Assembly: GCA_907165135.1 (NCBI GenBank)
Contig: OU015567.1
Coordinates: 13,392,001-13,456,000, forward strand
From: Oikopleura dioica
Lineage: Eukaryota; Animalia; Chordata
Direction of reading: 5' to 3'
Length of the DNA stretch: 64,000 bases
Position 1 is the stretch's first letter. Each line of letters starts with the position of its first letter. Position numbers and translations under genes: made by a program. This document shows positions 34,201 through 55,759 of this stretch, one piece after another. The notes beneath the pieces are model-generated. The model had not been told where the DNA came from. It saw only the letters and a list, made by a program, of their open reading frames with translations, and made no database searches.

Positions 34201-35647
34201 TGCAAATGTACGTATACTTGGATCTCCCGTCGACTTTTTGAAAACCGCCGTAAAATATTCTGATCCAAGCAGGAGAAATCGCCGGAAAGTTTTTCTGCAA
34301 TCTATTTGCGGGTCATTTTTGGCAAGTTCAAAGTTGGTTTGACAAATTGAAAGACCCGTAATTAGAAAGTGAGTGCTGAGATTGACTGCAAACGTAGATA
34401 TTGGGAAAGCGACGACTTCCGGTTTTAGTTTTCTGCTCTTGAACGATCTTTTCAAAGGTTTTTTCGTGATCAAGTAAGATTCTTAATTTTCAAAGCGTTT
34501 TATGGGGAAGTGGCTCGAATCGACAAAATAATTGCGACAAATAATTCGAATTCTGCAAAAAAAATTTTTCAAAAATCTGATTGGCCTACCGACCGAATGC
34601 GGACATTTCCAAAGTTTTACCAAAATTTCGGATGAAATTGTCGCATTTTTTGACGATTCGTGCCTCCTCTTATTTGCTTATTCTTTCCAGGGAACAGCAT
34701 TTTAAACCCTTGTCGAAGGATAATTTGTATACTTAAGGATATAGCCTATGAAATTGAACTTTCATAGCGCCTAAATGCGACGTCGGATCATTTTGTTTCA
34801 AGCGCAATCCTATCTAAACATGTACGCAGAACTTGATTCTGGTACTTTTTTAAAAATTTTCATTTGAATTTTTCTCTGTAGAGCGTTTTGAAATCTTACG
34901 ATCGCGATTCCTCGAAATTTTTACATTAAATCGGTCGAGTTTTTTTGATAGAAAAGTAATCTAGACCCTTATCTACAATATTGTGGGTTCGGTTTTCTCT
35001 TATCCCGTCAAAAACCGATTTTAGAGCTATTTCCGTGAGGCTTCCTCGGCGCGTGAATAGTGTAAAAAGCGCTGCGCTGGGTGCTCAATCTTTCGACTCC
35101 TCTTTCCCGAGAGAGTGCGCGCGTTTGAAAGAGCGCTCTGATTGGTTGGACCCAAAAAAGCGCGCATGGAAGAAAAACAGTAGCAAGAAAGAGGAAAACA
35201 CTAGAATGAAAATTTGGCCGAGTTTGATAATTTTTCAGCCACAATATTCTAGTTTAGCATCATGCTAATGCAGTCATTGGTTTAGTTTTAGCGATTTAAT
35301 GTAAATATTTCGAGAAATCGCGATCGTAAGATTTCAAAACGCTCTACAGAGAAAAACTAAAATGATTTTTTTTTTAAATACCAGAATCGAGTTCTGCGTA
35401 CATTTTTAGATAGGATTGCGTTTGAAATAAAATCATCCGACGTCGCATTTAGGCGCTATGAAAGTTCAATTTCATAGGCTATATCCTTAACATAATCGCT
35501 CCATCCAGAATAAAATGTGACGATGAAACCCTAAAAATTTAAAGGCATTCCAAAATCGTTCAATAAAGAATTAATTCATACAGCGATCCAAACTCCTGCG
35601 ATGAAGCTCTTTTTTGAAAAGCTGCCAATACTCGACCCCTCTAACAT
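31295..35647 (-). CDS. DEG/ENaC (ASIC-like) ion channel subunit, multi-exon; ends approximate
   Basis: TM1 and post-TM1 VWIA/GFIVTFYSGWSDYVK/YTNYPSTR; RRFPNIYVCS; CDFNYADC...YGYCLMYN; TM2 YTVVDFLSDLGGTVGLFLGLNLFALV. Confidence 0.85.
33841..34665. repeat. Two degenerate copies (about 33841-33990 and 34510-34665) of an internally palindromic ~150 bp repeat in DEG/ENaC introns
   Basis: Shared GCTCGAATCGACAAAA...CGACAAATAATT and AAATCTGATTGGCC...GAATGCGGACAT; each copy ends with TTGTCG motifs inverted relative to its start. Confidence 0.6.
34737..35486. mobile_element. 750 bp TTAA-flanked TIR element (Kolobok-like MITE) coinciding with a GA-AG intron of the DEG/ENaC gene
   Basis: TTAA 34733-36 | GGATATAGCCTATGAAATTGAAC ... 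GTTCAATTTCATAGGCTATATCC | TTAA 35487-90. Inverted arms of about 200 bp. Confidence 0.92.
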
Positions 35648-36486
35648 TTCTTCTTTTACAAATAAAAATGGTGAATCGTCAAGAAAGAAAAAAAAGTTTG
35701 AATAAAAAAGGAGGGTTTGCTCATCTAGTCGCCCTTTTACTGAATAATAAATAGCCTTGTGTCAGAAAAGCCAGGAACTATCAAAAGACTGCTAATGATA
35801 TTAGCCATTTATTTTCCTTCTGTAAGCCACAATCAGCATTTTCTGGAAGTCTAAAAACGTCGATAAACAGGTTCTTACAGGCAGAAAACGGGACTTCTAT
35901 TCAACCAACGTGTTGACGGCGAAACATGCTTGCATGTACATTGGTTGTGGTGATGTTTCCAGAGCCAGACACGGTTTTGTAAATTCAGACAGGCAGATTA
36001 TCCTCATCAACTTATGTTAAACTAGCACGAGTTGTTTCACATGGACGTTTTCTTTTTCAATTTTTGACTGAGCTTAACCCTGTCTCGAGCAAAACACCAG
36101 TGGTAGACCATGAAACAGGGACTCTTTCGCCAAATATCATGACCGTTGAAATAGAGACCTCTAAGAAGTATTTCCGCCTAAAAATAAGCCCCCCTTATTT
36201 TCTTATATTTGATATTATTTCTGTTTTTAGATCATCTGAATCGCTAGACCTGGTTGGTTCCTTAACGACTTTTTTCCCGTAAGGCAATTCGTCAAACAGA
36301 ACTAAAATAAATATTGTCTTTTTCGGGAGAAAAAATAATGATAGAGATAACCACGAATTGTTCGGCCGAGTTGACTAAATTTCTTGGTAGCCCCAAGGAA
36401 CTTGAATCGTGCGCTGGAAAGACGTGTTGGATCGCTGTTTCTAAAGATGGCGGTGGTGTTATAAACGGAGCCATTGTTTTTGGTTC

Positions 36487-36865
36487 CGTTGAACTTTCCC
36501 TGCTATAGATACAGAAACTCGAGATTCGGTCCGGGTTTCCCCGTTTATTATGCGTGCACAGTTTCCAAGGGTACAGTCGAGCGGTCCAAGCGGTCTTCTG
36601 CGGATGGATTGGCTAACGGGCGGTACTGAACCTAAAGTTCCGTTAGTACTGGTCGGGACAGTTCTCTTTAATCAAGGTCGGGCCTAGCCTCAGGATTCCT
36701 GAGCTCCTACCTCGCCGGATCTCGGTGCGAGTCTGGCGAATCCAAACTGCACCTGGTCAGCGCGATAGTGGCCTTTCCTAAGGGCGAGTCGCCGACTCCC
36801 CTATTACTCGTCAAGGGACCGCTGTCCTTGGCAGCTGTCTCCGAGACTGGGTATCACCCTTAACG
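36487..36865 (-). repeat. 3' LTR (379 bp)
   Basis: CGTTGAAC...CCTTAACG on the plus strand; AATAAA on the minus strand near 36544-36549; direct repeat of 50017-50395. Confidence 0.95.
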
Positions 36866-36890
36866 TCCCCCTTCTTTACCTGAAATGCCA

Positions 36891-38233
36891 TTATCGTCGA
36901 TGGCCGCCTCTGTGGCCCCATCGTTTCTTTGCTCGTGGTTCGTCCCCTCTTCGGTCTTGGGCTTGTCTTTTGTACCCTGGGTGGTCAGGCGTGGTCGAGA
37001 ACCCGTTCTGCCGATACTCGATGTTAGAGCGTCCTCCGGTCATTACTGACCAGTCTCGCATGAAGTTTGGAAGTCGGTTGCTGCGACGGACTTCCCCGTT
37101 ATCCATGGTGAAGGCACGCAACCGGCCATTGTCCCCGACGGTGACGAGGTTGGTTCGTTGATAGTTGTCGAAGGTGGCTATGCGCGAGATTCGCTTCAAA
37201 TCCGATTCTCTCGTGAGAAAATCGTAAAGGCTATTAAGCCTCCATCGGTCTACTGTGAGTAGGGCGTCGCGATAGTTCTTCATTTTCTCCGCGTTCTCGT
37301 TAATCGCGTCACGGGTGGCTTCCGCCCATTCCAATACTTCAGCTGTTCCGCCCTCGGTTGGATAGTTATCGACCTGAAACACAAGGTAAATCAGCTGTGA
37401 CCAACTTGGTTCGTTTTACCTTCCCATTTAAGGACATCTCCGCGAGAAAATTGTCATAAGCGTCCACTGCAAACTGTGCGATTTGCGAACAGGTCACTTC
37501 CGAGCTTTTTCCTTGATAAGCTTTTCGACTGCCGCGAGAGAGTCCATATCTTGGAATACGACTCTTGTGCCCGTCTCTCCGGTGAAGCCGACTGCGTAGA
37601 CGAATCGTACGTGGAGGACAAATCCCTGCATTTCCGGCGGCCCCTTCAGCGTCAAGGCGAACAACTCCTTCTGCGCCCAGTTCAGGAGAGCAGCGAATGG
37701 AGGCGAAACAGGCAAATGCACTCGCTATAATTGCAAGGTAAAATTAAGTCCGTTTTTGCCAAACTTACGTTCTCTGGTAGAGCGCATACTCCTCTGTCCA
37801 CTTCGCTCATTCTAGTCATCCATCGGTCTAGATATTCGAGGAATTCTTTAACCTCCGGTTTCGATCTAACTTTGCCGACGAAGCTGAGTTGTTCAAATTC
37901 TCGCATGAAGCTTCCGGGTCGGATTCCCGCTTTTAACTTGAGGATGATCGCGTCGTCCTTCGAGTCGGAGCGTTGTTGTTCCAATTCGGCAATCTGAGAT
38001 TTAGATGCCAATTTATTTTCGTCGATTTGATCCTCGACTTCGAGAAAGCTTGGCAGGAAGCCAGCTTTCGAGGCCGAGCCGTTATTGGCTGCGGTGGATG
38101 ACTCATCCATTTTTTGCGACTCATCCTTGTCGGGAGTTTCTGGAGCTCCGGAGTTTTCTTCGGCGATTTTTACGTCGCTCATTTTAGCCGCCAGTGATTG
38201 GTTCGCTGTGGTTGGTTTCCCGACAAAGACCAT
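36891..38233 (-). CDS. Retrotransposon cargo gene S1 (sense strand, intron-containing), unknown function
   Basis: ORFs 37682-38233, 37494-37721 and 36891-37382 are linked by GT-AG introns 37725-37768 and 37374-37419. The junction near 37475-37530 is unresolved (short GA-AG or GT-AG intron, or frameshift). Confidence 0.6.
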
Positions 38234-38304
38234 GATTCAACCGTCTAAAAGTGATATTTTTTAGAGAAGCTGAGGAGCTGAGGCATGTCCGCACGAATTC
38301 TGCA

Positions 38305-39287
38305 ATGCTTGCCTTACAGGCGAATGCAGCTGGTAGAAATTACGATTACAGTCAATTTGAATATAATCTACAATCGCCACACATGCGAAGATCTCAACGT
38401 GTGCCCGGCTACAAAGCTAGATTTAACAATATTGGTTTACTCCGCAGGGCATTCGATTCGCCTGGTCTTACTGAGGCGGTTCTTTTTACTGGCACTTTCA
38501 CCGCCAACGCGACTTTTAGAGGTAGTTACGAAACAGTATAAGTTTTAGGAATCTAAATGTATTACTAGATCTCGACCACCCGGAGGGTTTACGACTGCCT
38601 GTACAAGTGAAAGTTATTGGCATGGACACGCACAACTCAGTGGATTTCCGCGACATGTTCGACGCCTTCTGTGAAGCTGTTTTCGATCTGAAGGCGGAAA
38701 TGGACGAAAACCCTCACATTCGGTTAAAGATTACGCCTGATATGCACACTTACGCGTTGAGGTGACATTTCTTATTCTTAGCGCGAACATAATATCATTT
38801 TTATATAGAAATCTATTAAACCGAGCCCTGACGTGCTTGACCATGACATCTGACGAAGCGCTGGACTGCCTCGAGCGAACAGGTGAACAAAACGAGTCGA
38901 GGGGTGGTCGAACTAAATTCTTTTTTAGGGTTCTACTCGTTCGAAACTGCCATCCAGACTGGATCCTTTTCCACGTTTGGCTTCGACAAATACGCTATGC
39001 TTTACCTTTTTGTCTACTCGTTCGTGAAGGTGTGACCGGGTTCGTTCTCGTGGATCACTAAATGTTGATTTTAGAACATGCATCCCTCGCGATCTGGTGT
39101 CTCTCGTCGCCATATTCCCGCTCTACTTGTGTTCAAAGCCGAAGCAGGGGACAACGAAGCGTTTCTTACCCGGTTGCAAAATTGCGTAAGAATTTTCGGC
39201 GATCCCAGCCAGCTCCTCAATTTGACTAGCGTCTCCCGAGCTAATCGTGATTACGGTATTGTCCAACTCATTGTGACCATCTCCTGA
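38305..39287 (+). CDS. Retrotransposon cargo gene B1 (antisense, 5 exons, about 265 aa), unknown function
   Basis: GT-AG introns 38522-38568, 38762-38808, 38883-38928 and 39030-39074 (45-47 nt) all preserve one reading frame. Start codon uncertain. Confidence 0.72.
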
Positions 39288-39305
39288 AAGATTCTTTTAG
39301 TTGCC

Positions 39306-39942
39306 ATGCGATTTCGACCCGACCAGAAGTTCTGGACGCAGCATCAACTTGACGCTCTGCGATTTTTCGCCATGTATCTGTTTCTCAACAACGAGGTTCA
39401 CCAGTTCTTGGGCAACGTAAGTACCTTGAGCGTAGACGGCGCACAATTCATCCAGCATGGAATTTCCTGACGTTGACGATTCGTTAAGGACGAAATCACC
39501 GCCAACCTCTGCCTCGTTATCCACTGGATGGTCAGCCATCCTGAATCCCGAAGACTCGTCCTAAAATATGGTTTTTACCGATTATTGGTACGATATGTTT
39601 CGGGAGCCTCTGCTATTCCACTACCTTTCCGCACTGTAAAGTACCAAGGGGTAATCTACACGGCTTTCCCCTATGATTGCTTCCAGATGGAACGTAAGTA
39701 ATTACTTGATTGACGATAGCTAAGATTTAATTTTAGGGATGTGTAAGCTCGTCCCTCAAGGTTTGGGCGAGTTGTGGGTTGGAACGCTGTTAGTACAACG
39801 CTATCCTAATGGTTTGCCACGTGATGGGAAGATTCCCGAGTTCCCTATTCCCGAGATCGACGGTCGTCAGCCCGCTGGCAACGCCTGCCTACCGATACAT
39901 CCCGATACGTTGGACCTTGCTCGCTTATCTTTCCAGAATTAA
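39306..39942 (+). CDS. Retrotransposon cargo gene B2 (antisense, 3 exons, 173 aa), unknown function
   Basis: ATG 39306; GT-AG introns 39417-39488 and 39694-39736 in frame; preceded by TTCTTTTAG 5 nt before the ATG. Confidence 0.72.
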
Positions 39943-40072
39943 CGATTACCTTTACATTCCAAGCTCGCTGCTGTTCTGCGTTAAATTTCTGCATTCTGCG
40001 TACTTCTCTTGCTAATTGTATGCATTCGAAGGCTTTTTCCGATTTCAATGTTTCTCGTGCTAAAATACATTC

Positions 40073-40354
40073 CTACGAATTCGACTCTATAAAATAAACT
40101 CTGAAAATTAATGAAATCGTTCCTGAACTTCCGTCCTTTGTTAGTTCTTCCATTATCGCTTTTGCCAAGCCGGCTTGGCCAATTGCGCCGGCTTCTTTCA
40201 CGGTCGCCATGAGATAGTCCACGCCTTTGTTGAAGAAGAAAGATTGCTTCGATGCAAATCTTTCCGTTTGCGCGAGAGGCTTCAGGCGCTTTGGGGTCGA
40301 AAAGCAGAAACCGTTGCAGTCCTCTTCGCGGCTGCGCTTTTTGAAACTCTCCAT
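40073..40354 (-). CDS. Possible cargo gene C1 (MESFKKRSREE...TPKRLKP); may splice further to ORF 39845-40048
   Basis: ATG directly after CCTTAG-A; basic NLS-like N-terminus; downstream splicing not resolved. Confidence 0.4.
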   Translation of the reverse strand: MESFKKRSREEDCNGFCFSTPKRLKPLAQTERFASKQSFFFNKGVDYLMATVKEAGAIGQAGLAKAIMEELTKDGSSGTISLIFRVYFIESNS

Positions 40355-40718
40355 TCTAAGGGCGTAAATGTTTACGTAAACCGTTTTAGTTTTACAGAGA
40401 ACGAAAAATTTCAGCGAAGATTATGTTTTGACTATGTTTTGCGCGCTTCTTTTTCGGTCTGCGACCTCTTTTCGCTATCTGAATTCCCACTTTTAGAATG
40501 CATTTCCGTTTAAGTGCTTACCAGTTTTTAAATTCGGTTACGCCATCGCCTGCGACGTCCATTTCGTTTAGGAGCGCGTTTATTTCCGCTTCCGCCTTCT
40601 TTCGCTCTTGGTAGTTCCGTTGGAGATTATATAGAGCCACGATCAATCGCTGGCGGAGGTGAGCCTCATTCGACGGGTTTTCCAGCGCTCTCTAAAGTAA
40701 AAATTTTTTAAGTTCTTC

Positions 40719-40988
40719 CTAAATCTTTGACTCATTTATACATACCACGTCATGAAACGAGAGTTTCTCTCCACATGTCGGGCAAGGAACCTCTTTGTCG
40801 TCAATGATCGCACCGATCCGTTCTCGGAGGCATGGAAAACATGCGTCCAAGCATCGCTGGTGATTGTTCGTTCCGACCAGTTGCGGCTGCTTCTTGTCAT
40901 CAAACGGCTCGTGGCATTCTTTACAGAAGTCCGATTTTAGCAGCAAGTTTTTCCATGGTTCTGAGACGAGTTTCGGTTTCTCTGACAT
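40719..40988 (-). CDS. Cargo RING-finger-like small protein (89 aa from first ATG)
   Basis: CKEC-x-P-x-L-x-H-x2-C-x3-C-x2-C-x15-CPTC, a degenerate RING arrangement. Confidence 0.6.
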   Translation of the reverse strand: MSEKPKLVSEPWKNLLLKSDFCKECHEPFDDKKQPQLVGTNNHQRCLDACFPCLRERIGAIIDDKEVPCPTCGEKLSFHDVVCINESKI

Positions 40989-41102
40989 CTTCTCCGACTT
41001 CGAGAATGAATTGAGCGAGAGTAACCGTTTATTAGTTTTAGACGGTCGCCTGATTTTTCGATCCACGCAACTGCCGCCTCCGTTTTAATTTCTTCGAGGC
41101 TA

Positions 41103-42234
41103 ATGCCGCGCGCGAAGCCAGCTTCCCGTGGGTCGCCTATTCCGACCCGTGGTCGTCTCAAAAGGAAAGGGCTTCACGATTCTACCGACCCCCTGATGAC
41201 TTCTAGCGCTCCAGAACGGAAACGAGTCAAACAAGCACTTGGTAAGTCGCATATCTTGACTTTTCTAAGCGTATCCCAGCAAATTCGCGGAATACCCTTG
41301 CTCTCAAGGCCTGCAAACGGAAACTTCATGAGCTCGAACACACTATTTCTCAGTCCCCAAACGCTAAACGACCATTTTCGAAGAAGACGGATTCTCCCGG
41401 CGAGTACAGTCCCATTCCCGCAGATCCAACCCCATCGGAAAGCGGGTATATGGATTTATCTCTTTCCTCCGGGTGCAGTGACCCTCTTCTTGGCTACATC
41501 GATCAAGCGTTTCGCATCGCCAAAAGTGCCTCTAGATCACGGTCTTTCACGCAACCGGAGTTGACTTGCTCTCCAACGAACTTTCGTCCTGACTTTGGCG
41601 ACATTACACCATATGGGTAATGAAAGACCATTTTCCGTGTCTAAACTTCTAACGTATTTAGGCGCAAACTATCATCTGTCGCTGCGTTTTTCCCCGAATT
41701 TGACCACACTCTTCTCTGCCTCTTCCGGCCCGAAAATGACTTGTACGTTCCCCACAAGCTCTACGATTTACGAAAGCAGTTCTGTGGTCCGTATTCTTCG
41801 ACCGAAGTAGAACAGGCCCGGGCTAATCAACCGTATTCTTGTTTCGAGCCACTATTCCGGTAATTGACTTTACGCTTGCCTGGAAACTAATGGTATTCTT
41901 AAGCTATCTTGGACAGTGCTTGGAAGCCATGGAGATGGGCATATTCCTCGAGTTTGAACTCAAGGTTCCGCCTCGCGCTCTGTTTCACCCGCCGTCTGAT
42001 TTCACAGAAGAGCAGGTCGTGTTTGGCAAGCAGCTTGCCACAACCGTAACCGTCTTTATGGAGCATCTCCAACGGTATTTCATGGTCGAGCAGCTGATAG
42101 CCGCATTTGATAGCGGTGTGATACGCGCGAACCATTCTGAAATATCCTCTGCTGCCACCCGCCTTGTTCATCTGTTTTACGATCTGCATTTCCAGGGCGA
42201 GCGCCCTCCTTTTTCGCTTTATAAATCGCTCTGA
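41103..42234 (+). CDS. Retrotransposon cargo gene A1 (antisense, 5 exons, 323 aa) with basic N-terminus
   Basis: GT-AG introns 41242-41279, 41446-41478, 41617-41661 and 41860-41903 give 972 nt in one frame. Confidence 0.72.
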
Positions 42235-42251
42235 CTGTCCGTTACCATCAA

Positions 42252-43955
42252 ATGTCCTTGTTTTATTTACCACAGTTCATCCGCTCATATTACAAAATGC
42301 GCAAAGCCGAAATTGAAGAAGAAACTTTAGAATTCAACTCTCCGAATGGTGCTTTTCTGCCGAATTCCGTTGCGACCTACCGCGACGAAATCCGCGACAT
42401 CGAAGCTCAACTCGACCAACTCTCTTACGGAAAAGGACCGAACTTGCCCGGGATACCAGCAATCGACCGCATCATCATCCGCCGCACTGAGAAGAGGCTC
42501 CAGCACCGACTGAAGAAGGTCCGCAAGCGTGCCGCTGAGTGGAAACCCCTTCCGAGGCCCAAATGTAACGCCAGCCCTGTCAAATCCGCTCTCGTCTCTA
42601 CCTGCTTCGACCTTTTCGGCCGCATCTTGTGGCTTGGCCTCTGGGTTGGGCTCCTTTTCTGGCTGCTCAAGGTCACCGGCCTGTGGTATCTTCTCGTGTG
42701 GATATATCAAGCCTTCTGTTTTCTCGTCGATGGAGTGGTAAGTGTTCATTTTATTCACCGGTGATAAGCGTTTTTCCAGCTCTGGTGCGTCTCCTGGCTT
42801 GGAGGCGATGATGGAATTGAGGAACAGCCTCACGTCTCGTCTTTCAATGTCACTTCCTTAACGGAGGAAACCGTTGCCACTGTCAGTGAATCCGCCGTTG
42901 GCCAGTACGTCTCTGCGATCGATTTCTCCCAGTTGAAGAAGAAGTTTGTTCCTGAATGGTTGACTTCCTTCTTCGATCGGTTCTTCGGGGATTCCGCCGA
43001 ATATTCTTTCTTCCCGACTGCCGAGGAAGTCTCTAAACATGTACGAGTGCCGGTCCGAGAACGGCGATGGATAAACGACGAATTCGAAGATGTTCCTACT
43101 TTGTACAATCCTCCCCGACGATATCCACCCAATCGATACGATGTGTGGCGGCCCGATTCTCAGTCCGACAACAATCCCGTCGACGACCCTGAGTGGCGAT
43201 TCGGAGGGGCAAAGCCTATCGTTTGGTAAATATCCATCATAAATTTTCATTAAAAACATTTTTTATTGTATTGGTAAAACGATAAACGTATTCTTTAGGT
43301 TCGGGTGCATCTTCGGATTCATATGTTTGCTCACTATCGGAATTTGCTGGCGTTTTGAGGAATGTTGCGAAGCGATGGCTGGATGCTTCCCTAAAGCCGA
43401 TGAGAGCAATCGAGCACGAATGAGACGCGAAGAGAGAAAGAACGCCAAATCGAAACACAAGCTTGATAAGCTTACCGCAGCTGCTGAAATCCGCTTCAAC
43501 GAGCTCAATACGAAACAACAGATTTACAACACCCAAGCTTCCTTTCTCATGGACAATCTCACCAACGCTCAGGCCGTCGTGCACCAGCAAACAGTCTCCG
43601 GGGGCCAAGTTTCCCCTCAAGCGCTAGCCCAAGTACAGAGTGCCTTTGACGCGCTCCAAAAATTCCAGGCAAATGGTCCCGAAGACCTCGTTCCTGAGGA
43701 AGAAGAGAAAACAGGCCTACTGGCCCGAATTAAACGAGTTGATCCACTAAAGGTAACGATTCCAATTAATCTCTAATTTCTGACCAAGATGTTCAGCGCG
43801 TATCGGCCAAGAAAACTTCGAAAGACGACCAGATTACTGTCGCAGTAACTACCAACGCCCCTACTCCATCATCGAGTGCTACTGTCGTGACAAACGAGCC
43901 TACTGCTCCAGTTAATGCTAACGGTGGGCAACTTCCCCCTGCATGGGGCAACTAA
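42252..43955 (+). CDS. Retrotransposon cargo gene A2 (antisense, 4 exons, about 500 aa) with two hydrophobic segments and a coiled-coil-like region
   Basis: GT-AG introns 42738-42779, 43226-43298 and 43753-43796 join ORFs 42252, 42933 and 43327. Hydrophobic ILWLGLWVGLLFWLLKVTGLWYLLVWIYQAFCFLV and IVWFGCIFGFICLLTIGICW. Start is ATG 42252 or 42297. Confidence 0.72.
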
Positions 43956-44136
43956 CTTATCGGATACCTTTTCCTGCGCCTTCTCTCGTTAACACTTACC
44001 CTGCCTGTACATATGCTTATTGCGAAATACATGCGAAATTACAAACTCGTTAGACTACTGCATTTTCGACAAGTGTGAGCTACAACGATTAAGCGAGATT
44101 TTGATTTTTTATTTTTGAGGAACTGAGGAAATGGGG

Positions 44137-47100
44137 TTACACGTAAGGGTCTGGCATGTTTTTTCCATATGGCCATATTTTCTTATCCGTAACTGTGCTT
44201 CTCGGCTTCAGATGTTCCACCATCGACAACTCTTCTACTTCGTTCAGAAATACCAGCATCGCCTTTGTGTACTCGTTCATGTCGTCTTCGTTCCTGTTGT
44301 CGCCATCTACCACCGCTTTTATGCTTTTGAAGCACCAGGTATAATGCTTAATATTCTCGAGCCCCATTCGCTTCGTACCTATCTGACCCGACATCCAATC
44401 TATACCATTCGGAATTTCCGCTGTTTTTGTGATCTTAAACCATGGGTGCCTTTTATTTTTGTCGTAATTACCTTCTATTAATACGAAGTCACCCAATTTG
44501 ATCGGACTTACCACTTCTCCGCCGTACTTATCCCCTTTTTCGAATGGCTTCAGAACAAGAGGGTCCCTGATTCTGCCGGGCGTTTTCAGTCTCGTCTCCG
44601 CATTCCTTGATCTGTTTCTAGCTTTGCTAACGAATTCCCGTATCTTTGCCAGATCCACGTTTATCGATTTGCCGTCAGATGTCCTTCTATCGGTCCAGAC
44701 TTCCATTGGCGAGTATCCATGGGCACTCACTGTCCGATTCACCGAATCCGCTACCGTAAGTTCCATTATGTTTGGACTTCTTTTATTCCAAATTTCGGCT
44801 TGAAGCGTTGGGCTCAGCTTCGCAATCCGGCTGTCGAGCGGCGCGAGGTAGTTCTTCGAAGTGCTCGGTTTGCTTGGAAGCACGAATTCGACGTTCAAAT
44901 CTTTCCAGAACTCCCGATTTCTGATGCTCTTATTTACGGAGCTTCCGTCCATGATCACTTTTACCTTACCGTTTAAACGAAGGCCTCTGTCGAAATCGTT
45001 TATTGCTTTCAGCATAATTTCCGAGCCCTTCACACTATTGTTTTCTGAATTTTTTACATTGTATATTCGTGAGTAGCCTGACAGAATGCAGGAGACTATG
45101 TAAAACTTCATTGTAGATTCGTCATGATTTCTGTGTGCGTTCCTCGTGATAACGTCGGCCAGCAGCACCTCTCCGACATGTTTTGCATCCAGGTCATCGT
45201 ATTCGAGTTCCTCTGTCACGATTTTCTTCCGATTTCTCTGGTAAGTGCATGAGAGGCAATTGTTGACGACGTTGGCGGCTATCGCATCCAGTTTCGGAAA
45301 CCAGACTTCGCTCTTCATGAGGTTTTTCAATCTTGTGATTGTTCCGCAGTTACCTCGGTGGAAGGCTTTCGCCACCGCCGGTCCCAAAGCTTCCGGAATA
45401 ACAATCGGGTTGCAGATTCTTGTGCCCACCATTATTTTTCTTTTTCGTAGAATCTTTGGTTCCCCATCGCTATCCAAGGTTGTGCTCCCTCGCAGGCTTT
45501 CCGCGCGTCTGTCTTTTGGTCCTGGCATTTTTCCTTTCGGACTCTTGGACTCGATCACCCTGCTGAGAATCGGATCCCCATCTTGGATACGCCTGATCAA
45601 GTGGCGATCCCGAAGGAATCCTACTCCATCGAATGCCAGTATCTCTTTTTCGAAGTCTTGCTCAGTCTTCCGGCTCTTCTGCGACTTCCTGACGTCTCTT
45701 TTAACTTTGCTTCGCGTGACAATTGCGTCGACTTCTGCCGCTCTTCTTTTCCAGCTGCTAACTAAACGTGTTTTCAGGGATCCTTGAAGGGCCCGGAACG
45801 CCAATTCGTCCTCGAGCGCGAAGACCTCCTCGAATCGCTCAAAATCCACCGCTGGAATCGATACGAAGCTGCTAATATCCAACCCTTCTTCGAACAAGCA
45901 GTTCAATGAATCGCTGGACGAGCAGATCGCGCAGTTGTTGTCACAGTCCTTCAACAGGTAATCCGTGCGTGAGATAAAGTCCGCTAAATCAATCTGGGTA
46001 GACTCACCTTTTTCGTACACCACCTCGACGTCGAAATTTAATAGTTTGACGATTTGGTCGTTTATTCGTTTATCGAGGCTCAGCTCCTTTCCCATGCGGG
46101 CTCTATCGAAAAGCTTCTTCACGCTGAGAGAGTCAGTAATGATTACCACCGGTTTATCCACAAAATCGATTTCCCAGCAAAATGCGAGAGTTGCCGACAA
46201 GATTCCATGGAGTTCCAACTGGCAAGAGCTCCACTGCGTTTTTAGTTGCGCATCCCCTCTCTTTCGTGACCAGAGTTTCACGATTTGCGTTTTATCCCCC
46301 TTCTTTTGATAGAGATAACCTCCTGACCCTAGATTCGAGCTGTCCACGACTAAATACGTATCTAGGTCTTTTTCAATTGGATATAAGCTAATCATCTGGT
46401 CATTAATTGCTCTTGCCAACTTGTTGTAACACTCCTTCAGCTCGACAGTCCACGCTACCGCATCGCTCAACTTCTTCTGGCCGGAAGCTGCTTCGTTCAA
46501 CTTCCACATCAACTCCGTCCGTCTTGGCAGGCCTATAGATAGGTAATTTATGATGCCGATGTAGCGTTTTAGCTGTTTTACTGTCCTAATTGTGTCTGGG
46601 TTCTCCGCTAGCGCTTTCTTCAAAACGTGATTCGACGGGCAAATCTGACCATTCTTGACCTTTCTACCTAGAAGTACTATTTCTTTGGACGCGATGACGC
46701 ATTTAGAGCCTTTGAGCCGCAAATTTCTATACATTAATGTCTTGAAAACCTTTCTTAGTCGGTCTTTTAGTTCTTCGAAATTACCCGCTACTATTAAAAA
46801 ATCGTCCATGTAAATGCTAGTGTATTCTAGGTGATCGTACATAATTCTAGTAATCATCTCGCGGGCCAGGACTGGGCTTGAGACCCAGCCCATCGGAAGT
46901 CTTCGATATGCTAATTCACCGACTTTCGGATGAAGGATGACGAAGTGCTTCCAGAGCTCCTCCTCAATGTCAAAACAGTGGAACATCGAACTAATATCCA
47001 CCTGTACTACGTAACCCTTCCTCGTAAACGGAGCAGATAATTGCAAGATCCGTTCAATACTGTCTGTCTGTCTTGCCACGTGTTCCGTCTTGTCATTAAT

Positions 47101-49923
47101 GCCACTTCTAGCGCAGTCTCCGACTACCCTGACGTTCGACGCGGTTAATTCGACATTCGCCTCGCCGTTGGGACCTTTCTTCGAGACTCCGAAGAAACTC
47201 ATGTAGTTTGCAGCGGTCATGTGCTTCGGCAACCTTACCAGCACGCCCTCCGCCGCTTCTTGATCCAGTTTTTCTTCGATAGCTCGTGTTACGCTCTCTG
47301 GTAAGTTCTTCCCATAACCGATTGGTGCCGCTTTCGGGCTTCTGTCCGAATTACCCTCGTCAATTTTAGCATGTACTGTAAAGTCTCTGTCGGCAACGTG
47401 TCCGATCGTGCCTTCGAACAAAGGTGTGAACTCATCCAACAGCGCGTTCATCTCTTTCTTTTCGGAATCGTTCAAGACGTTTCCAAAAGGGTCAATTTGT
47501 ACATCTTTCCGTGAGTTTTTCTCCCTATTCTCCGCGTGAATTCGTTCGAGCTTTCTAGCCCAAGCGCGGTTCCCATCTGGGTCGTATGCCTTTGTTGGTT
47601 CCATGCCTGCGAACGAGCTTCGATCAAAAATATGGTCGTGCAAGGTAGGGTTCCGTTCCACCGATTCCATGAGCATTAAATCCTGGCTGTTTATAGGGGT
47701 TTTATTAGAATTCACCCAGACATCTCGTATATTCTTATTTCTGACCTCGACTATTAAGTCGTCGTCATTCCTGCCGCCTATCTTCACTTCAACTCTGTTT
47801 CGAACGAATCCATCAACGCCGAGGATGATCGTGTTGCCTTTGCCTGCGTAGACCCTGCAATTTTCAAATTCTAATTTTAGATTTTCATTGAACTCTATGT
47901 CGAAATCTGCAAGATAGTTCTCGAAATGCATCCTGCCGCCGCTTGCTACTTTAGCGCTTGCCGGGCTGCAATCTGTAAGTTTAACGTTTCGGCTGCATCT
48001 ATGCATTAAAATTTCCACGAAACTTTCTGGAACTACTGATATCGTGGCGCCAGAGTCTATTAAGACTTTATAGCTTTCTAACTCGTTCGATTTATTCGCA
48101 ATTTTAAAGTGGATGTCGAATCGACCTCTATTTGTAGTCGTTGCCGCTCTGCACTCATCTATTCTAGAAAAATTTGTTAATGAATTCTCTTCAGTGATCG
48201 CCTTACTGATGCCGCATGAAGAGTATTCGTCGACTACGTGAACTTCCTCCAGTGATTCTTCATCCGTCTCTTCTTCCATGTCGTTCCTAAGTAAGTCTTC
48301 CATCAGCGCTACGAGAACCGAGCTTTCTCCGTCGTCCTGGTCTAAAACAAATGCCCGGTAATCCTGGCCTTTTCCCCGCACTTTATGTGACCGGTCGAAC
48401 GCCTTTTTAAACGCATTCTTTGTCTGCCTAACTCTATTATTTCGGTTACCTTGGTTCCTCGGTCTTGGGAACAAATGGAAGCATTTCTTCGTGAGCTTCT
48501 CGTTCGCATACTTGAGTTCACTAGCGGTGAGGGTAAGGCTTGTTTTCGAGTAAACCTCCCCCGTTTTTGTGTCTACGATGAACTTACTGTTATTTAGGGC
48601 GAACTTTGAATCCAGCTTCTTGGTGCGGTTGGGCAACACGGCATTAACTTCCTCCTCGTCTGATCCGAAGACTGACGAAGTGCTGCTGAGATCCTCTAAG
48701 ACGTTTACTTTGTCGTACTTTTCTTTCTTCCGTGAAACCCTTTTCCATTCTGAATAAACCGATTCTAAAGCTTTCCCCATATCTCCACCGTCACTGATGT
48801 CAGCCGCCAAGCGGATGTGTTCCAGCATCACGTGGCCTTTGGCATTCGTGATTTTATCCATTTCATCAAACACTAAACGCTTATTGCATAAGAAGTCTCT
48901 TAGGCCTACCTCGGCGAAGTCTATGCCGGCTTTCTTCGCAAGCTTCTGTGTAATCTCATCGAGATTCTTCTTACCAATGAAGCTAATCGTAAAGAAAACT
49001 GCTAATGTATCCATGAACGGCGTCCATTTTTCTGAAGGTGATCCTTCCACATTATAATAAGCATTTAAACGAGTTGATGTGGTGTTTCCGAGTGTCGTCC
49101 CTTTAGGGAAACGTTCACTTCTTTCATGCCGGACTATAAACTCTGCCAGGCACGATTTTATGTTATCAAAACAATTCGAAGCCTTGGCGCCACTGAACTT
49201 GCCGAAACAGAAGCTGCGTAAGATCTCAATGTTTCGCACGAAGGTATTAACGCTCGTATCCTCGCAGTTTAGTTCCAATTGGCACCGTAAGTATTCCCGC
49301 AAATTGACTTGTTCCCCGTCACACACCCCCTTGCGGCTGTTCGGCTCAACCGCCACGAGTATTATCTTTCCAACGCATCTTACGACATCTCTCATGTGTT
49401 CAGTTGGTGTTTTATTTCCATCCGTTGCTGGCTTGAACACGTTCGAGAAGTCCGACACGGCGAGATATGGAAAAAATGTTCCCATGAACCATTCTTTCTG
49501 CTTTTGCACGGTAAAATCCTTCTCATCGTAGTGTTTGCTTTTTACAAACCCTTTTTTATCGTCACTAACTTTTATATTCTCTAAGCAATCCAGCCCGACA
49601 TATCTTCCTTCCTTTTGGAACGATTCAAACTCTTCCAGATTTATCGGGATGCCAAGGTCTCCCGACCAATTTGGCCCCGTGACTGAGTCAGAAACTCCCC
49701 AGAGCAGCGGTACTTTATCTTCGTGTCCTAGCATCGGGGACTTTGGGAGCTGTTTTCTTACGGTCTCATTTAGATGGAGGGTCAACTCCCTGTACCAGTC
49801 TTTGGCCTTTCTCGCCCTTGTGTGTCCATCTGAATCCACAAAGGCGAGGCGAGGGATTTTGCTGTCCCCCGCACAAAACCCGAAGGGTTTTACATCTTCG
49901 AAGATGCGCGACGAGAAGCTCAT
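44137..49923 (-). CDS. pol: Gag-Pol polyprotein (1928 aa, single ORF)
   Basis: Protease VLIDSGATISVV; RT VQVDISSMF...LPMGWVSSP...YMDDFL; RNase H LVVDSS...LELHGI...ITDSLSV; integrase H..C..CLSC, LADVIT, IMDGSS. Confidence 0.96.
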   Translation of the reverse strand: MSFSSRIFEDVKPFGFCAGDSKIPRLAFVDSDGHTRARKAKDWYRELTLHLNETVRKQLPKSPMLGHEDKVPLLWGVSDSVTGPNWSGDLGIPINLEEFESFQKEGRYVGLDCLENIKVSDDKKGFVKSKHYDEKDFTVQKQKEWFMGTFFPYLAVSDFSNVFKPATDGNKTPTEHMRDVVRCVGKIILVAVEPNSRKGVCDGEQVNLREYLRCQLELNCEDTSVNTFVRNIEILRSFCFGKFSGAKASNCFDNIKSCLAEFIVRHERSERFPKGTTLGNTTSTRLNAYYNVEGSPSEKWTPFMDTLAVFFTISFIGKKNLDEITQKLAKKAGIDFAEVGLRDFLCNKRLVFDEMDKITNAKGHVMLEHIRLAADISDGGDMGKALESVYSEWKRVSRKKEKYDKVNVLEDLSSTSSVFGSDEEEVNAVLPNRTKKLDSKFALNNSKFIVDTKTGEVYSKTSLTLTASELKYANEKLTKKCFHLFPRPRNQGNRNNRVRQTKNAFKKAFDRSHKVRGKGQDYRAFVLDQDDGESSVLVALMEDLLRNDMEEETDEESLEEVHVVDEYSSCGISKAITEENSLTNFSRIDECRAATTTNRGRFDIHFKIANKSNELESYKVLIDSGATISVVPESFVEILMHRCSRNVKLTDCSPASAKVASGGRMHFENYLADFDIEFNENLKLEFENCRVYAGKGNTIILGVDGFVRNRVEVKIGGRNDDDLIVEVRNKNIRDVWVNSNKTPINSQDLMLMESVERNPTLHDHIFDRSSFAGMEPTKAYDPDGNRAWARKLERIHAENREKNSRKDVQIDPFGNVLNDSEKKEMNALLDEFTPLFEGTIGHVADRDFTVHAKIDEGNSDRSPKAAPIGYGKNLPESVTRAIEEKLDQEAAEGVLVRLPKHMTAANYMSFFGVSKKGPNGEANVELTASNVRVVGDCARSGINDKTEHVARQTDSIERILQLSAPFTRKGYVVQVDISSMFHCFDIEEELWKHFVILHPKVGELAYRRLPMGWVSSPVLAREMITRIMYDHLEYTSIYMDDFLIVAGNFEELKDRLRKVFKTLMYRNLRLKGSKCVIASKEIVLLGRKVKNGQICPSNHVLKKALAENPDTIRTVKQLKRYIGIINYLSIGLPRRTELMWKLNEAASGQKKLSDAVAWTVELKECYNKLARAINDQMISLYPIEKDLDTYLVVDSSNLGSGGYLYQKKGDKTQIVKLWSRKRGDAQLKTQWSSCQLELHGILSATLAFCWEIDFVDKPVVIITDSLSVKKLFDRARMGKELSLDKRINDQIVKLLNFDVEVVYEKGESTQIDLADFISRTDYLLKDCDNNCAICSSSDSLNCLFEEGLDISSFVSIPAVDFERFEEVFALEDELAFRALQGSLKTRLVSSWKRRAAEVDAIVTRSKVKRDVRKSQKSRKTEQDFEKEILAFDGVGFLRDRHLIRRIQDGDPILSRVIESKSPKGKMPGPKDRRAESLRGSTTLDSDGEPKILRKRKIMVGTRICNPIVIPEALGPAVAKAFHRGNCGTITRLKNLMKSEVWFPKLDAIAANVVNNCLSCTYQRNRKKIVTEELEYDDLDAKHVGEVLLADVITRNAHRNHDESTMKFYIVSCILSGYSRIYNVKNSENNSVKGSEIMLKAINDFDRGLRLNGKVKVIMDGSSVNKSIRNREFWKDLNVEFVLPSKPSTSKNYLAPLDSRIAKLSPTLQAEIWNKRSPNIMELTVADSVNRTVSAHGYSPMEVWTDRRTSDGKSINVDLAKIREFVSKARNRSRNAETRLKTPGRIRDPLVLKPFEKGDKYGGEVVSPIKLGDFVLIEGNYDKNKRHPWFKITKTAEIPNGIDWMSGQIGTKRMGLENIKHYTWCFKSIKAVVDGDNRNEDDMNEYTKAMLVFLNEVEELSMVEHLKPRSTVTDKKIWPYGKNMPDPYV

Positions 49924-50016
49924 CGCATATGCTCAGGAAAACGTCCTAGCAGACGAGGTTCAGTACGCAGGGGGAAGTAAGGTTCGTGCCGCTCAGTAAC
50001 TGAGCTTCAGTCACCA

Positions 50017-50395
50017 CGTTGAACTTTCCCTGCTATAGATACAGAAACTCGAGATTCGGTCCGGGTTTCCCCGTTTATTATGCGTGCACAGTTTCCAAGG
50101 GTACAGTCGAGCGGTCCAAGCGGTCTTCTGCGGATGGATTGGCTAACGGGCGGTACTGAACCTAAAGTTCCGTTAGTACTGGTCGGGACAGTTCTCTTTA
50201 ATCAAGGTCGGGCCTAGCCTCAGGATTCCTGAGCTCCTACCTCGCCGGATCTCGGTGCGAGTCTGGCGAATCCAAACTGCACCTGGTCAGCGCGATAGTG
50301 GCCTTTCCTAAGGGCGAGTCGCCGACTCCCCTATTACTCGTCAAGGGACCGCTGTCCTTGGCAGCTGTCTCCGAGACTGGGTATCACCCTTAACG
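50017..50395 (-). repeat. 5' LTR (379 bp)
   Basis: Direct repeat of 36487-36865; on the minus strand it is followed immediately by the TGG-initiated PBS. Confidence 0.95.
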
Positions 50396-50897
50396 TTCAA
50401 CAATCAACGGTTAATCGAGAACTAGAAAACTATTCAAACTAAACACTTCTAATTGTTAAATTCGTGTGTCTAAAATTGGAGTCTTCTTGAAACATAGTTT
50501 TGGACAACCAAAAATAAGTTTTCTCGTTCATGTACTCAACCTGGACCCGCTACAATGCCTTCATAGAACTGGCTATTGGAGAATCTAATGTGCTCAAAGA
50601 AATCGTCAAATTTCTTGCCAAAGAACTACCTAAGGTCGGTCATTCTTGCATTTGAGTCAGAACATGGTGAATAATGAACAAAGCCACTTTTGGTTGAGCT
50701 AGGGCTCACGCAAACGGCCAAGGATAATGAAAATGCCGATTATATCAATGAGAACTTAATTTACTTTTCAATATTAATTATCGTCATGACGCAAATAAAA
50801 ATGGCCAAAAAGAATACACTCTTCCGCGGACGCGTTACAAATCCATCAACAAATGATCAAATGTAAATTGCCTTTTTTTCATCGCAACTTATATTTT

Positions 50898-51594
50898 AGC
50901 CTATCCCTCGAGCCTTGTAACTTGACAAAAGACGAGGACTGGGTTTGGCTGAGACTGAACCGACCTGAACTGCTTCAAGAAGGGGCCGCACGTGGCAGTG
51001 AAAAATTAGCGAAGACAGGTCGAAAATTAGAAATTTCGCAGGTCGAGTCAAGCGATGTTTCCAATATTCTGGCGATGATCCAGGAGTTGGCGATTTACGA
51101 AGATATGCTCGACCAATGTAAAATGACGAAAGAGTGGCTGGATGAGGATTTTTCCGCTGGGCCTAAGTTTGGCAAGTTTGATGGGAATCTGTGCGTTGCT
51201 ACGATCGCCAAGTTGGACGGGCAAGTAGTTGGATACACCGTCAGCATCGGTCAGTTTCTAACAAGTTCGCTGAGGTTCAACTTGTTTCAGACTTTTTCAC
51301 GACTTCGCATGGGAAAGAAACCTATCTCGAAGATTTATACGTCAAAGAAGCGTTCCGCGGACAGGGAATTGGTTCGATTCTGTTAAATTCAGTTTCCGAA
51401 TCTTCACAGTCTCGAGGAGCGGCGGGGGTGTACTGGGTTTGTTTAGGTAATCGAATTTGCTATCTAGGCGTTTTAGGTTCTTTTTAGCCTGGAATAAAAA
51501 ATCGCTGTGCTTTTACGAGAAAATGGGCGCCAACCCTCTCGACGTTACATTTTTCCGATTCGAGCCAGAGATTCAAAAATGGATGCTTGAATGA
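50898..51594 (+). CDS. GNAT-family diamine (spermidine/spermine) N-acetyltransferase-like protein; 5' end uncertain
   Basis: DVSNILAMIQELAIYE; YLEDLYVKEAFRGQGIGSILL; AWNKKSLCFYEKMGA; two in-frame GT-AG introns. Confidence 0.85.
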
Positions 51595-51616
51595 ACTGCT
51601 GTTGAATAAATTAGAT

Positions 51617-54689: not shown

Positions 54690-55759
54690 AAGCTTTCACA
54701 ACTACAACGACGACGACAACAACAGAAGCTACTACAACCAAAACGACAACAACTTCGCCAACTACAACAACGACGAGTACAACAACAACTACAACAACAA
54801 CAGAAGCTACCACAACTTCCACATCAAAAACGACAACAACGACACAAGCGACAAGTACAACGACTACGACAACGGAGGCTACAACAACTACGACGACAAC
54901 AACAACAACGACAACAACCTCGTCCTCTTCCCCAACATGTCCGCCCCTGACTTCTAGCTTCGGATTAACAAACGGTTCTTGGAGCTGTGATGGAAATGAA
55001 GAAGATGACAACTGTCGATGGATTTGCGACTATGGAATCCCCACTGGAGCTCGTTCAAAATGCCTCGCTGAAAAAACAGGCGACTGGAAAGCTCCGAGCG
55101 ATAAAGTAAAGGCTAAAGCTGACTGCTCGCTCTGTGAAGAAGTTGGACCCGATTTGACACCTACCGATGGAAGTAAGTAACATCGCTAGATAATTTTTAA
55201 ATTAGTTCATTAGCTTGGACCTGTCAAAACAAGAAGGCAAAACGAATTTGCCAGTTAAACTGCCCAGACCGAAAACGAGCTGTTTTCGCAGAGTGCATCG
55301 TTGCTAAGAACCAAGCATTCGCGATCAACACGAAGATTTCGCAAGAAGAAAATACATGCGAGCCGGTGGTCGGACCTTGTGACGTCTCCCTTGTCACGGT
55401 AATTCATGCGCTCAATCGTAATTGAATCTTGGTTTTGTATACGTAATTATACCAATTCAAGTTTTATTGCTCTATCGTTTCCTAGCACAGCGTGGTTATT
55501 AGTTAACTCTAGCCATCAATCAAATGCGGAAAATTATTTATCTCAGGAAAACGCACCCGACAACGCTAAATGGAATGGCATCGACTTCTCGGCTGCATTT
55601 GACTTCTCGCAGACAAGCTCTGATCCAAAGATCGTTCTTTGGGGAAGACGAAAGTGCAACTCTGGCGACGGCTTCCACCCCAAGACTCAAATCATGTGCA
55701 AAATTACTAAAAAGGGAGCAAAATGGATTTTCAAGGGCAACGCGCAGAAAAACTGTTGA
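54690..55759 (+). CDS. Mucin-like Thr-rich protein with three small Cys modules; 5' exon not resolved
   Basis: ACA/ACG/ACT-rich tract 54698-54920 encoding poly-Thr, then WSCDG...CRWIC, WTC...CQLNC and RKCNSG...MCK...W...C* joined by GT-AG introns. Confidence 0.7.

Follow-up and report, generated by a model that had tools for sequence, protein, structure and literature searches.

A 13,908-bp LTR retrotransposon of the Ty3/gypsy type occupies positions 36487-50394 (minus strand) of the window, the 64,000-nt stretch of Oikopleura dioica DNA analysed here, as a single recent, polymorphic insertion. The region that separates pol from the 3' LTR carries a cargo of about seven predicted, intron-rich genes that lie on both strands; this cargo appears to be the new feature, while the Ty3/gypsy LTR type, extra or antisense ORFs, and single spliced genes are known from other elements. 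Comparison with a diverged sister element and with homologous proteins points to a cargo that is old and selected, and the element is likely a virus-like, unusually complex kind of retrotransposon. Taken as a whole, the observations are probably best explained by a recent element with conserved cargo genes, working in the manner proposed below.

Insertion, alleles and surroundings

Contigs joining position 36482 to 50395 were found in four of four DNA runs (three samples from one study, with run X1 possibly the source of the window), and share four letters at the joint, which fixes both the target site duplication (TSD) as GTTC (4 bp) and the element length of 13,908 bp. The empty allele is without both LTRs, gag-pol and cargo together; as the empty site lacks all 13.9 kb, the cargo is not a host locus, and the possibility raised in the first-pass annotation, that the LTRs belong to two separate insertions around host genes, is excluded at this locus in all four runs. 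In X1 and X2 the element itself is present in contigs (12,345 and 12,103 nt, respectively) that both run from the cargo into the 5' LTR and show no substitution, the former passing unbroken through gag-pol. With the empty joint and the element contigs both found, both alleles occur in the X1 and X2 samples, a state also known from Tor elements (PMC4402516). Differences between the window and the X1 contigs are limited to three one-base gaps, one of them at a frame break in the cargo gene S1.

Two LTRs, a primer binding site (PBS), a polypurine tract (PPT) and a TSD within the 4-6 bp range of Ty3/gypsy elements were identified (Table 1), with an AATAAA in the 3' LTR ~60 nt before the LTR end. 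TG...CA ends are usual, although not universal, in Ty3/gypsy LTR retrotransposons; the termini here read GTT...AACG instead. The ends at 36487 and 50394 look unequally trimmed relative to internal LTR copies, and the LTR of a 7.3-kb marine metagenome contig (L001) likewise ends in ACG before its PBS (L001 630-640). The first 10 nt of the PBS are common to the window element and L001; no tRNA gene was found within the 64-kb window, and Rfam gave no match. The LTRs had been described as 379 bp without visible differences: their identity stands, as a run of 380 nt (36487-36866 versus 50017-50396, with two of its bases belonging to the TSD), and the element end is corrected from 50395 to 50394. 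The PBS and PPT are likewise upheld; the PBS immediately follows the 5' LTR, and the PPT abuts the 3' LTR. The label 'giant' was overstated, as the internal region is 13.2 kb against the threshold of over 20 kb for giant transposons in a passage of PMC6431247.

Table 1. Features of the element in window coordinates; exon counts and protein lengths in the cargo are those of gene models.
Feature	Position	Strand	Description
Left TSD copy GTTC	36483..36486		matched by the 4 shared letters at the empty-site joint
3' LTR	36487..36866	-	380 nt, identical to 5' LTR over whole length
Polypurine tract	36867..36877	-	abuts 3' LTR
S1	36891..38233	-	sense, 3 exons, ~415 aa; introns 37768-37725 and 37419-37374
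B1	38305..39470	+	antisense, modelled with 7 exons; 298 aa, no family assigned
B2	39528..39942	+	antisense gene model, 2 exons, ~123 aa; prediction only
C1	39845..40354	-	sense, modelled with 1 exon (93 aa) or 2 (146 aa); the weakest of the gene models
RING-like zinc finger and coiled region	40432..40988	-	sense gene model, 3 exons, 156 aa
Non-coding patch	41056..41080		25 nt between RING and A1 start codons, kept in sister element
A1	41103..42234	+	antisense, modelled with 4 exons; ~330 aa with a basic N-terminus, no family assigned
A2	42252..43955	+	antisense membrane-protein gene model, 4 exons, up to 514 aa
gag-pol	49920..44137	-	one open frame, 1,927 aa + stop, PR-RT-RH-IN
Primer binding site TGGTGACTGAAG	50005..50016	-	adjoins 5' LTR
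5' LTR	50017..50394	-	378 nt up to TSD
Right TSD copy GTTC	50395..50398		repeat and empty-site joint

At 50799-51600 is a spliced host gene, GNAT acetyltransferase-like by eye, that has the insertion ~400 nt upstream of it; one exon of this gene gave no Pfam match. Two MITE-like inverted-repeat elements were also noted in the window, at 8328-9101 and at 34733-35490, the latter high-copy and missing from one allele, which three runs contain (joint 34731-35486), together with a host coding repeat gene of the G-x-D-G-K-P type (17844-19110) and a host threonine-rich mucin-like stretch (54698-54949).

Cargo genes and their conservation

The interval of 7.2 kb that separates pol from the 3' LTR, and the prediction within it of at least 15 short GT-AG introns, were both upheld: the cargo spans 7,270 bp, of which 81% is exonic in seven gene models, three sense (S1, C1, RING-like) and four antisense (B1, B2, A1, A2), and hand modelling predicts 18 GT-AG introns, 13 in antisense and 5 in sense genes. 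Most of these introns (15 of 18) are 32-47 nt long, fitting the 47-nt peak of intron sizes in the host, where operons are also common (PMC4122922); mean GC is 0.34 in introns versus 0.51 in exons, a difference that is partly circular as the introns were picked by eye. Comparative support exists for five introns (two in S1, two in A2, one in B1), the other 13 standing as predictions, and was not found for the genes B2, C1 and RING among the compared elements and homologues. The RING-like ORF, rather than being a single exon, has two predicted introns and a coiled C-terminal part, and C1 may have one intron.

Start codons face outward in two pairs, separated by 72 nt in S1/B1 and by 115 nt in RING/A1, and several lie right behind an acceptor-like site; the members of each head-to-head pair are closely followed by a second gene (B2, C1, A2), an arrangement that suggests internal bidirectional promoters and operon-like processing. 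The patch conserved between the RING and A1 start codons is a candidate internal promoter element, and an alternative acceptor at 39488 may connect B1 with B2.

The first-pass annotation recognised no host-gene family in the cargo apart from the RING-like ORF, and searches of the cargo proteins against Pfam, PHROGs and PDB returned nothing above cut-off. The RING protein, with 8 cysteines, gave profile matches that were all below cut-off (zf-C3HC4_IRF-2BP1_2, E 0.03; zf-RING_5, E 0.16). AlphaFold2 models of cargo proteins reached pLDDT values of 46 and 35, with one row omitted from the alignment used for folding after MAFFT had twice misplaced S1 exon 1, and a fold search with one such low-pLDDT model had no match at E 0.001; the metagenome loci, searched by tblastn with the cargo models, yielded nothing below E 0.4. 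Within the earlier description of a mobile unit with virus-like accessory genes, mobility holds, as the cargo travels with related gag-pol, while 'virus-like' is best put conditionally, no viral family having been assigned to a cargo protein in family, atlas and fold searches.

Run X1 also contains a second, diverged element, with joints in X2 and partly in X3 as well, that shares nine colinear patches with the cargo over S1, B1 (38631-38707 and 39392-39426), the RING/A1 spacer, A1 (42173-42208) and A2 (43295-43388); none of these patches covers B2, C1 or RING. Between window and sister element, 28 of the 38 listed changes in S1 exon 2 (45 in all) hit third positions of the predicted frame (p=4e-7), so that 23 of the altered codons are synonymous and 10 non-synonymous; among the five other frames, four give at most three synonymous changes and the fifth gives 14 and holds three stops. 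The third-position bias shows S1 to be under purifying selection between the elements. In the sister element the donor of intron six of B1 is also retained, together with an acceptor at the same distance.

S1 features a basic Arg/Gly-rich tail, and its gene ends 24 nt from the PPT, an end common to the sister element. The reading frame breaks near 37.5 kb in the window; as the X1 contigs have a one-base gap difference there and four homologues read through the site, the break is probably an assembly error. A phmmer search of S1 exon 2 against 1.84 billion proteins returned three true homologues, 42-46% identical, and a fourth match (P0028) that was dropped as a repetitive protein. In the three homologues, which are gene calls made on unspliced DNA, the match ends at the predicted intron-2 donor, and a profile built from them led to CBY09614.1, an annotated O. 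dioica protein of 425 aa that aligns gap-free across both S1 junctions at 36-38% identity; two near-identical annotated copies read through intron 2 for 14 residues. A third intron, absent from the window S1, seems to be present in S1 homologues, the kind of difference that intron loss via RNA would give. S1 exon 3 alone found 0 of 453 candidates among longer proteins although a homologue exists, indicating that such searches are insensitive, and an atlas search with the same exon gave no usable match.

The annotated S1 homologues could be host genes, and a cargo captured once as a block of host genes and carried passively would account for its host-like intron sizes, its head-to-head, operon-like packing, the annotation of S1 homologues as O. 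dioica proteins and, since antisense capture would keep introns, the introns themselves. This origin is nevertheless improbable in the face of the purifying selection on S1 between elements, and of an A2 gene kept behind a pol that is only 48% identical in L001; the three annotated S1 homologues, spread over as many scaffolds, resemble one another at 87-95%, a pattern in keeping with mobile copies or alleles, and neither a cargo match elsewhere in the 64-kb window nor a host family was found.

A mechanical spliced-frame search, with thresholds set after the models had been seen, recovered 2,847 coding nt in four chains with five introns, against 148+/-258 in shuffled sequences (reached by 0 of 200), whereas the bare count of intron-like signals was 21 versus 14.1+/-4.4 and was reached by 15 of 200 shuffles. 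Reads on the cargo numbered 1, 0 and 1 in RNA runs X8, X5 and X10, a count made with no host control. The latter two results are in keeping with the block being non-coding filler or an assembly chimera with gene models arising by chance, an explanation that is hardly credible given contigs spanning cargo and pol unbroken in two runs, the third-position bias in S1, an independent full-length S1 protein and the A2 homologue, and one already refuted for S1 and A2.

gag-pol, A2 and their relatives

The intact gag-pol first reported at 1928 aa is confirmed as an open frame, with PR, RT, RH and IN motifs at residues 620, 975-1037, 1191-1313 and 1520-1705, the order of Ty3/gypsy elements. Pfam models for RVT_1 and two for RNase H matched above cut-off, and the integrase zinc domain below it; the integrase zinc site (residues 1520-1560) reads H-x3-C then C-x2-C, not HHCC, in the window and in protein P0001, and no CCHC knuckle was seen in gag. 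Among 19 matches to gag-pol, the closest is an unnamed protein (61% identity over the RT region), followed by O. dioica CBY15073.1 and its cluster (44% over the RT region, 34% overall), with the other 17 at most 26% identical. The nearest accessioned relatives are the unnamed O. dioica products CBY15073.1, CBY32411.1 and CBY13580.1, and no named Tor protein is among the 19. In an RT tree built from search matches only, including five metagenome loci, with no named references (Tor sequences among them) and no outgroup, the close relatives form a clade of seven rows (99/99) on a branch of 1.23; the related pol genes may already belong to a named Tor group. No relative of gag-pol or S1 was found among viral contigs, and none in prokaryote genomes. 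Several further diverged pol relatives occur in X1 and X2 over window positions 44182-46785, some at two- to four-fold higher contig depth, and the family is therefore larger than the one sister element with cargo patches.

L001, the only one of the five metagenome loci to extend beyond pol, encodes a pol 48% identical to that of the window, with a stop in the integrase, and right behind it an antisense gene, as A2 in the window, that was recognised as a homologue by reading the sequence. An intron interrupts the same Trp codon in both (69 nt in L001 versus 73), and the last intron of both genes has the same phase and a length of 44 nt. Over the TM helix, Cys cluster and basic tail the two proteins align with a score of 69, reached by 0 of 500 shuffles, while their ectodomains align no better than shuffles (105/500). 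A2 combines a hydrophobic region (118-166), a sequon, an RERR site, a TM helix (303-331), a Cys cluster and a basic coiled tail; sequons, an R-x-R-R site 42-53 residues before the TM helix, the Cys cluster and the basic tail are found in both proteins. An atlas lead assigning an L001 exon to phage minor capsid proteins, scored with high confidence, was rejected as it rested on only 132 shared features.

Two further sites of similarity between window and L001 were noted outside the coding regions: a leader motif, CTAGGACGTTTTC, just 5' of the gag start codon (window 49922-49945; L001 700-723), common to both although pol is only 48% identical, and a candidate packaging or translation signal; and, in the spacer on which pol and A2 converge, short motifs that resemble each other (window 43990-44045; L001 ~5800-5860), possible shared 3' end signals.

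The same layout in L001, pol followed by antisense A2, bears on whether the 7.3-kb block stems from another mobile element, or a virus, that landed within an ordinary Tor element. Mixed orientations, and genes unlike any Ty3/gypsy ORF3, are in keeping with such nesting, which is rendered very improbable by the layout of L001, by the absence of repeats of at least 40 nt within the block, and by the position of the S1 end, so close to the PPT and common to the sister element.

A more substantial alternative, possible if on balance unlikely, is that of an infectious retrovirus-like virus in which A2 is a true antisense-encoded envelope or fusion protein and the remaining genes are accessory factors as in complex retroviruses. 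The sequon, R-x-R-R site, TM helix, Cys cluster and basic tail of A2 and its L001 homologue, the position of A2 directly behind pol in both, and the recent, polymorphic state of the insertion are all consistent with this. Against it, A2 matches no family, and its agreement with the Env proteins of Tor3b/4b (sequons, furin site, TM helix) is at motif level only: the seven ectodomain cysteines and the sense orientation of those proteins are absent, with one Cys in A2 exon 2, two in L001 exon 2, and an antisense gene. A fusogen of the sORF2/FAST-like type, described as 60-210 aa with a single TM and an N-terminal myristoylation motif (part of 10.1101/2025.03.14.642691), was considered for A2 and rejected, as the protein departs from that description in size (~500 aa), in TM number (two hydrophobic regions) and in myristoylation. 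TM, sequon and furin motifs have, moreover, misled env calls before, according to a passage of PMC5408684. The boldest version, an old larvacean-specific lineage of complex retrovirus-like elements that spreads between cells or animals as a virus, with host-style intron-rich, operon-like genes on both strands, a new type of antisense envelope/fusion glycoprotein (A2), a Rev-like S1 and a ubiquitin ligase, is likewise regarded as doubtful.

Proposed working and comparison with known systems

Under the preferred reading, a recent element with conserved cargo genes, an unspliced 13.5-kb RNA from the 5' LTR would be packaged, tRNA-primed, reverse transcribed and integrated, in keeping with the established LTR copying cycle. 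Whatever is copied through RNA is expected to shed its introns; the 13 introns of antisense genes would be invisible to the spliceosome on genomic RNA, and so survive every round, while the five in sense genes would survive only if unspliced RNA were exported, for which a Rev/CERV-like factor would be needed. S1 is a candidate for this export factor on two features, its conservation and its Arg/Gly tail. The cargo would be read from the two internal head-to-head units (S1/B1; RING/A1) by bidirectional promoters, with the second genes B2, C1 and A2 expressed by operon-like processing, as in host operons. A2, a predicted cleaved membrane glycoprotein, would help particles pass between cells, and the RING protein would ubiquitinate host proteins, the functions of S1, A2 and RING all being inferred from sequence. 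Precedents include the internal promoters of Tor3b/4b (PMC4402516, in part) and Cer1 of Caenorhabditis elegans, which exports unspliced RNA via CERV, a spliced accessory gene behind pol (PMC10309623, in part).

Ty3/gypsy elements have been described with zero to two extra ORFs, and the tunicate lineage of the host is the sister group of vertebrates; if the proposed working is true, a complex-retrovirus organisation arose independently in that sister group. The element would offer a natural test of intron survival in sense versus antisense genes, with one S1 intron appearing to differ between lineages, and would be a source of new candidate proteins for fusion, RNA export and host interference; among the lineage-specific Oikopleura genes listed as 'unnamed', some may be cargo of transposons. 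No description of a both-strand block of about seven intron-rich genes in an Oikopleura LTR element was found in a literature search that covered sources other than Volff 2004, Denoeud 2010 and the Henriet 2015 supplement.

Complex retroviruses such as HIV and HTLV have spliced and antisense accessory genes, and resemble the window element in layout, with accessory genes behind pol, antisense genes and a genomic RNA that must stay unspliced, as far as the partial sources used here describe it; the window element differs in its Ty3/gypsy-type RT, the lack of a retroviral env, and host-like introns of 40-47 nt in nearly every gene. Cer1 with CERV is likewise an animal Ty3/gypsy element that expresses a non-env gene behind pol by splicing and must export unspliced RNA, whereas its accessory gene is single and sense, the likeness being one of layout rather than drawn from sequence comparison (sections of PMC10309623). 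In plants, Retand/Grande elements share a long region extending from pol to the 3' LTR (2.9-6.6 kb) and conserved antisense ORFs, mostly with TRP28 domains and accompanied by tandem repeats, in contrast to the 7.3-kb, both-strand, intron-rich region of the window element; the word 'intron' does not appear in the main text of PMC11963269. Extra coding capacity in animal LTR elements is known from bdelloid Vesta/Juno and planarian Burro, the latter with RING and ubiquitin-related motifs; these carry a single extra ORF3 or one huge polyprotein, Burro exceeding 30 kb, and no multi-gene spliced block is described in the sections of PMC5408684 and PMC6431247 used here.

Within the same host, Tor elements are also of the Ty3/gypsy type, with near-identical LTRs, a TSD of 4-5 bp, low copy number and hemizygous insertions, and Tor3b/4b further share internal promoters and a third, membrane-protein gene (PMC4402516). 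The coding content of Tor elements in the part of that paper drawn on here comprises gag, pol and at most one sense env, as against the seven genes of the window element, which are distributed over both strands and contain 18 short predicted introns, and the membrane-protein gene of the window element is antisense and without the Tor3b/4b cysteines. In Tor3a a single spliced gene is known.
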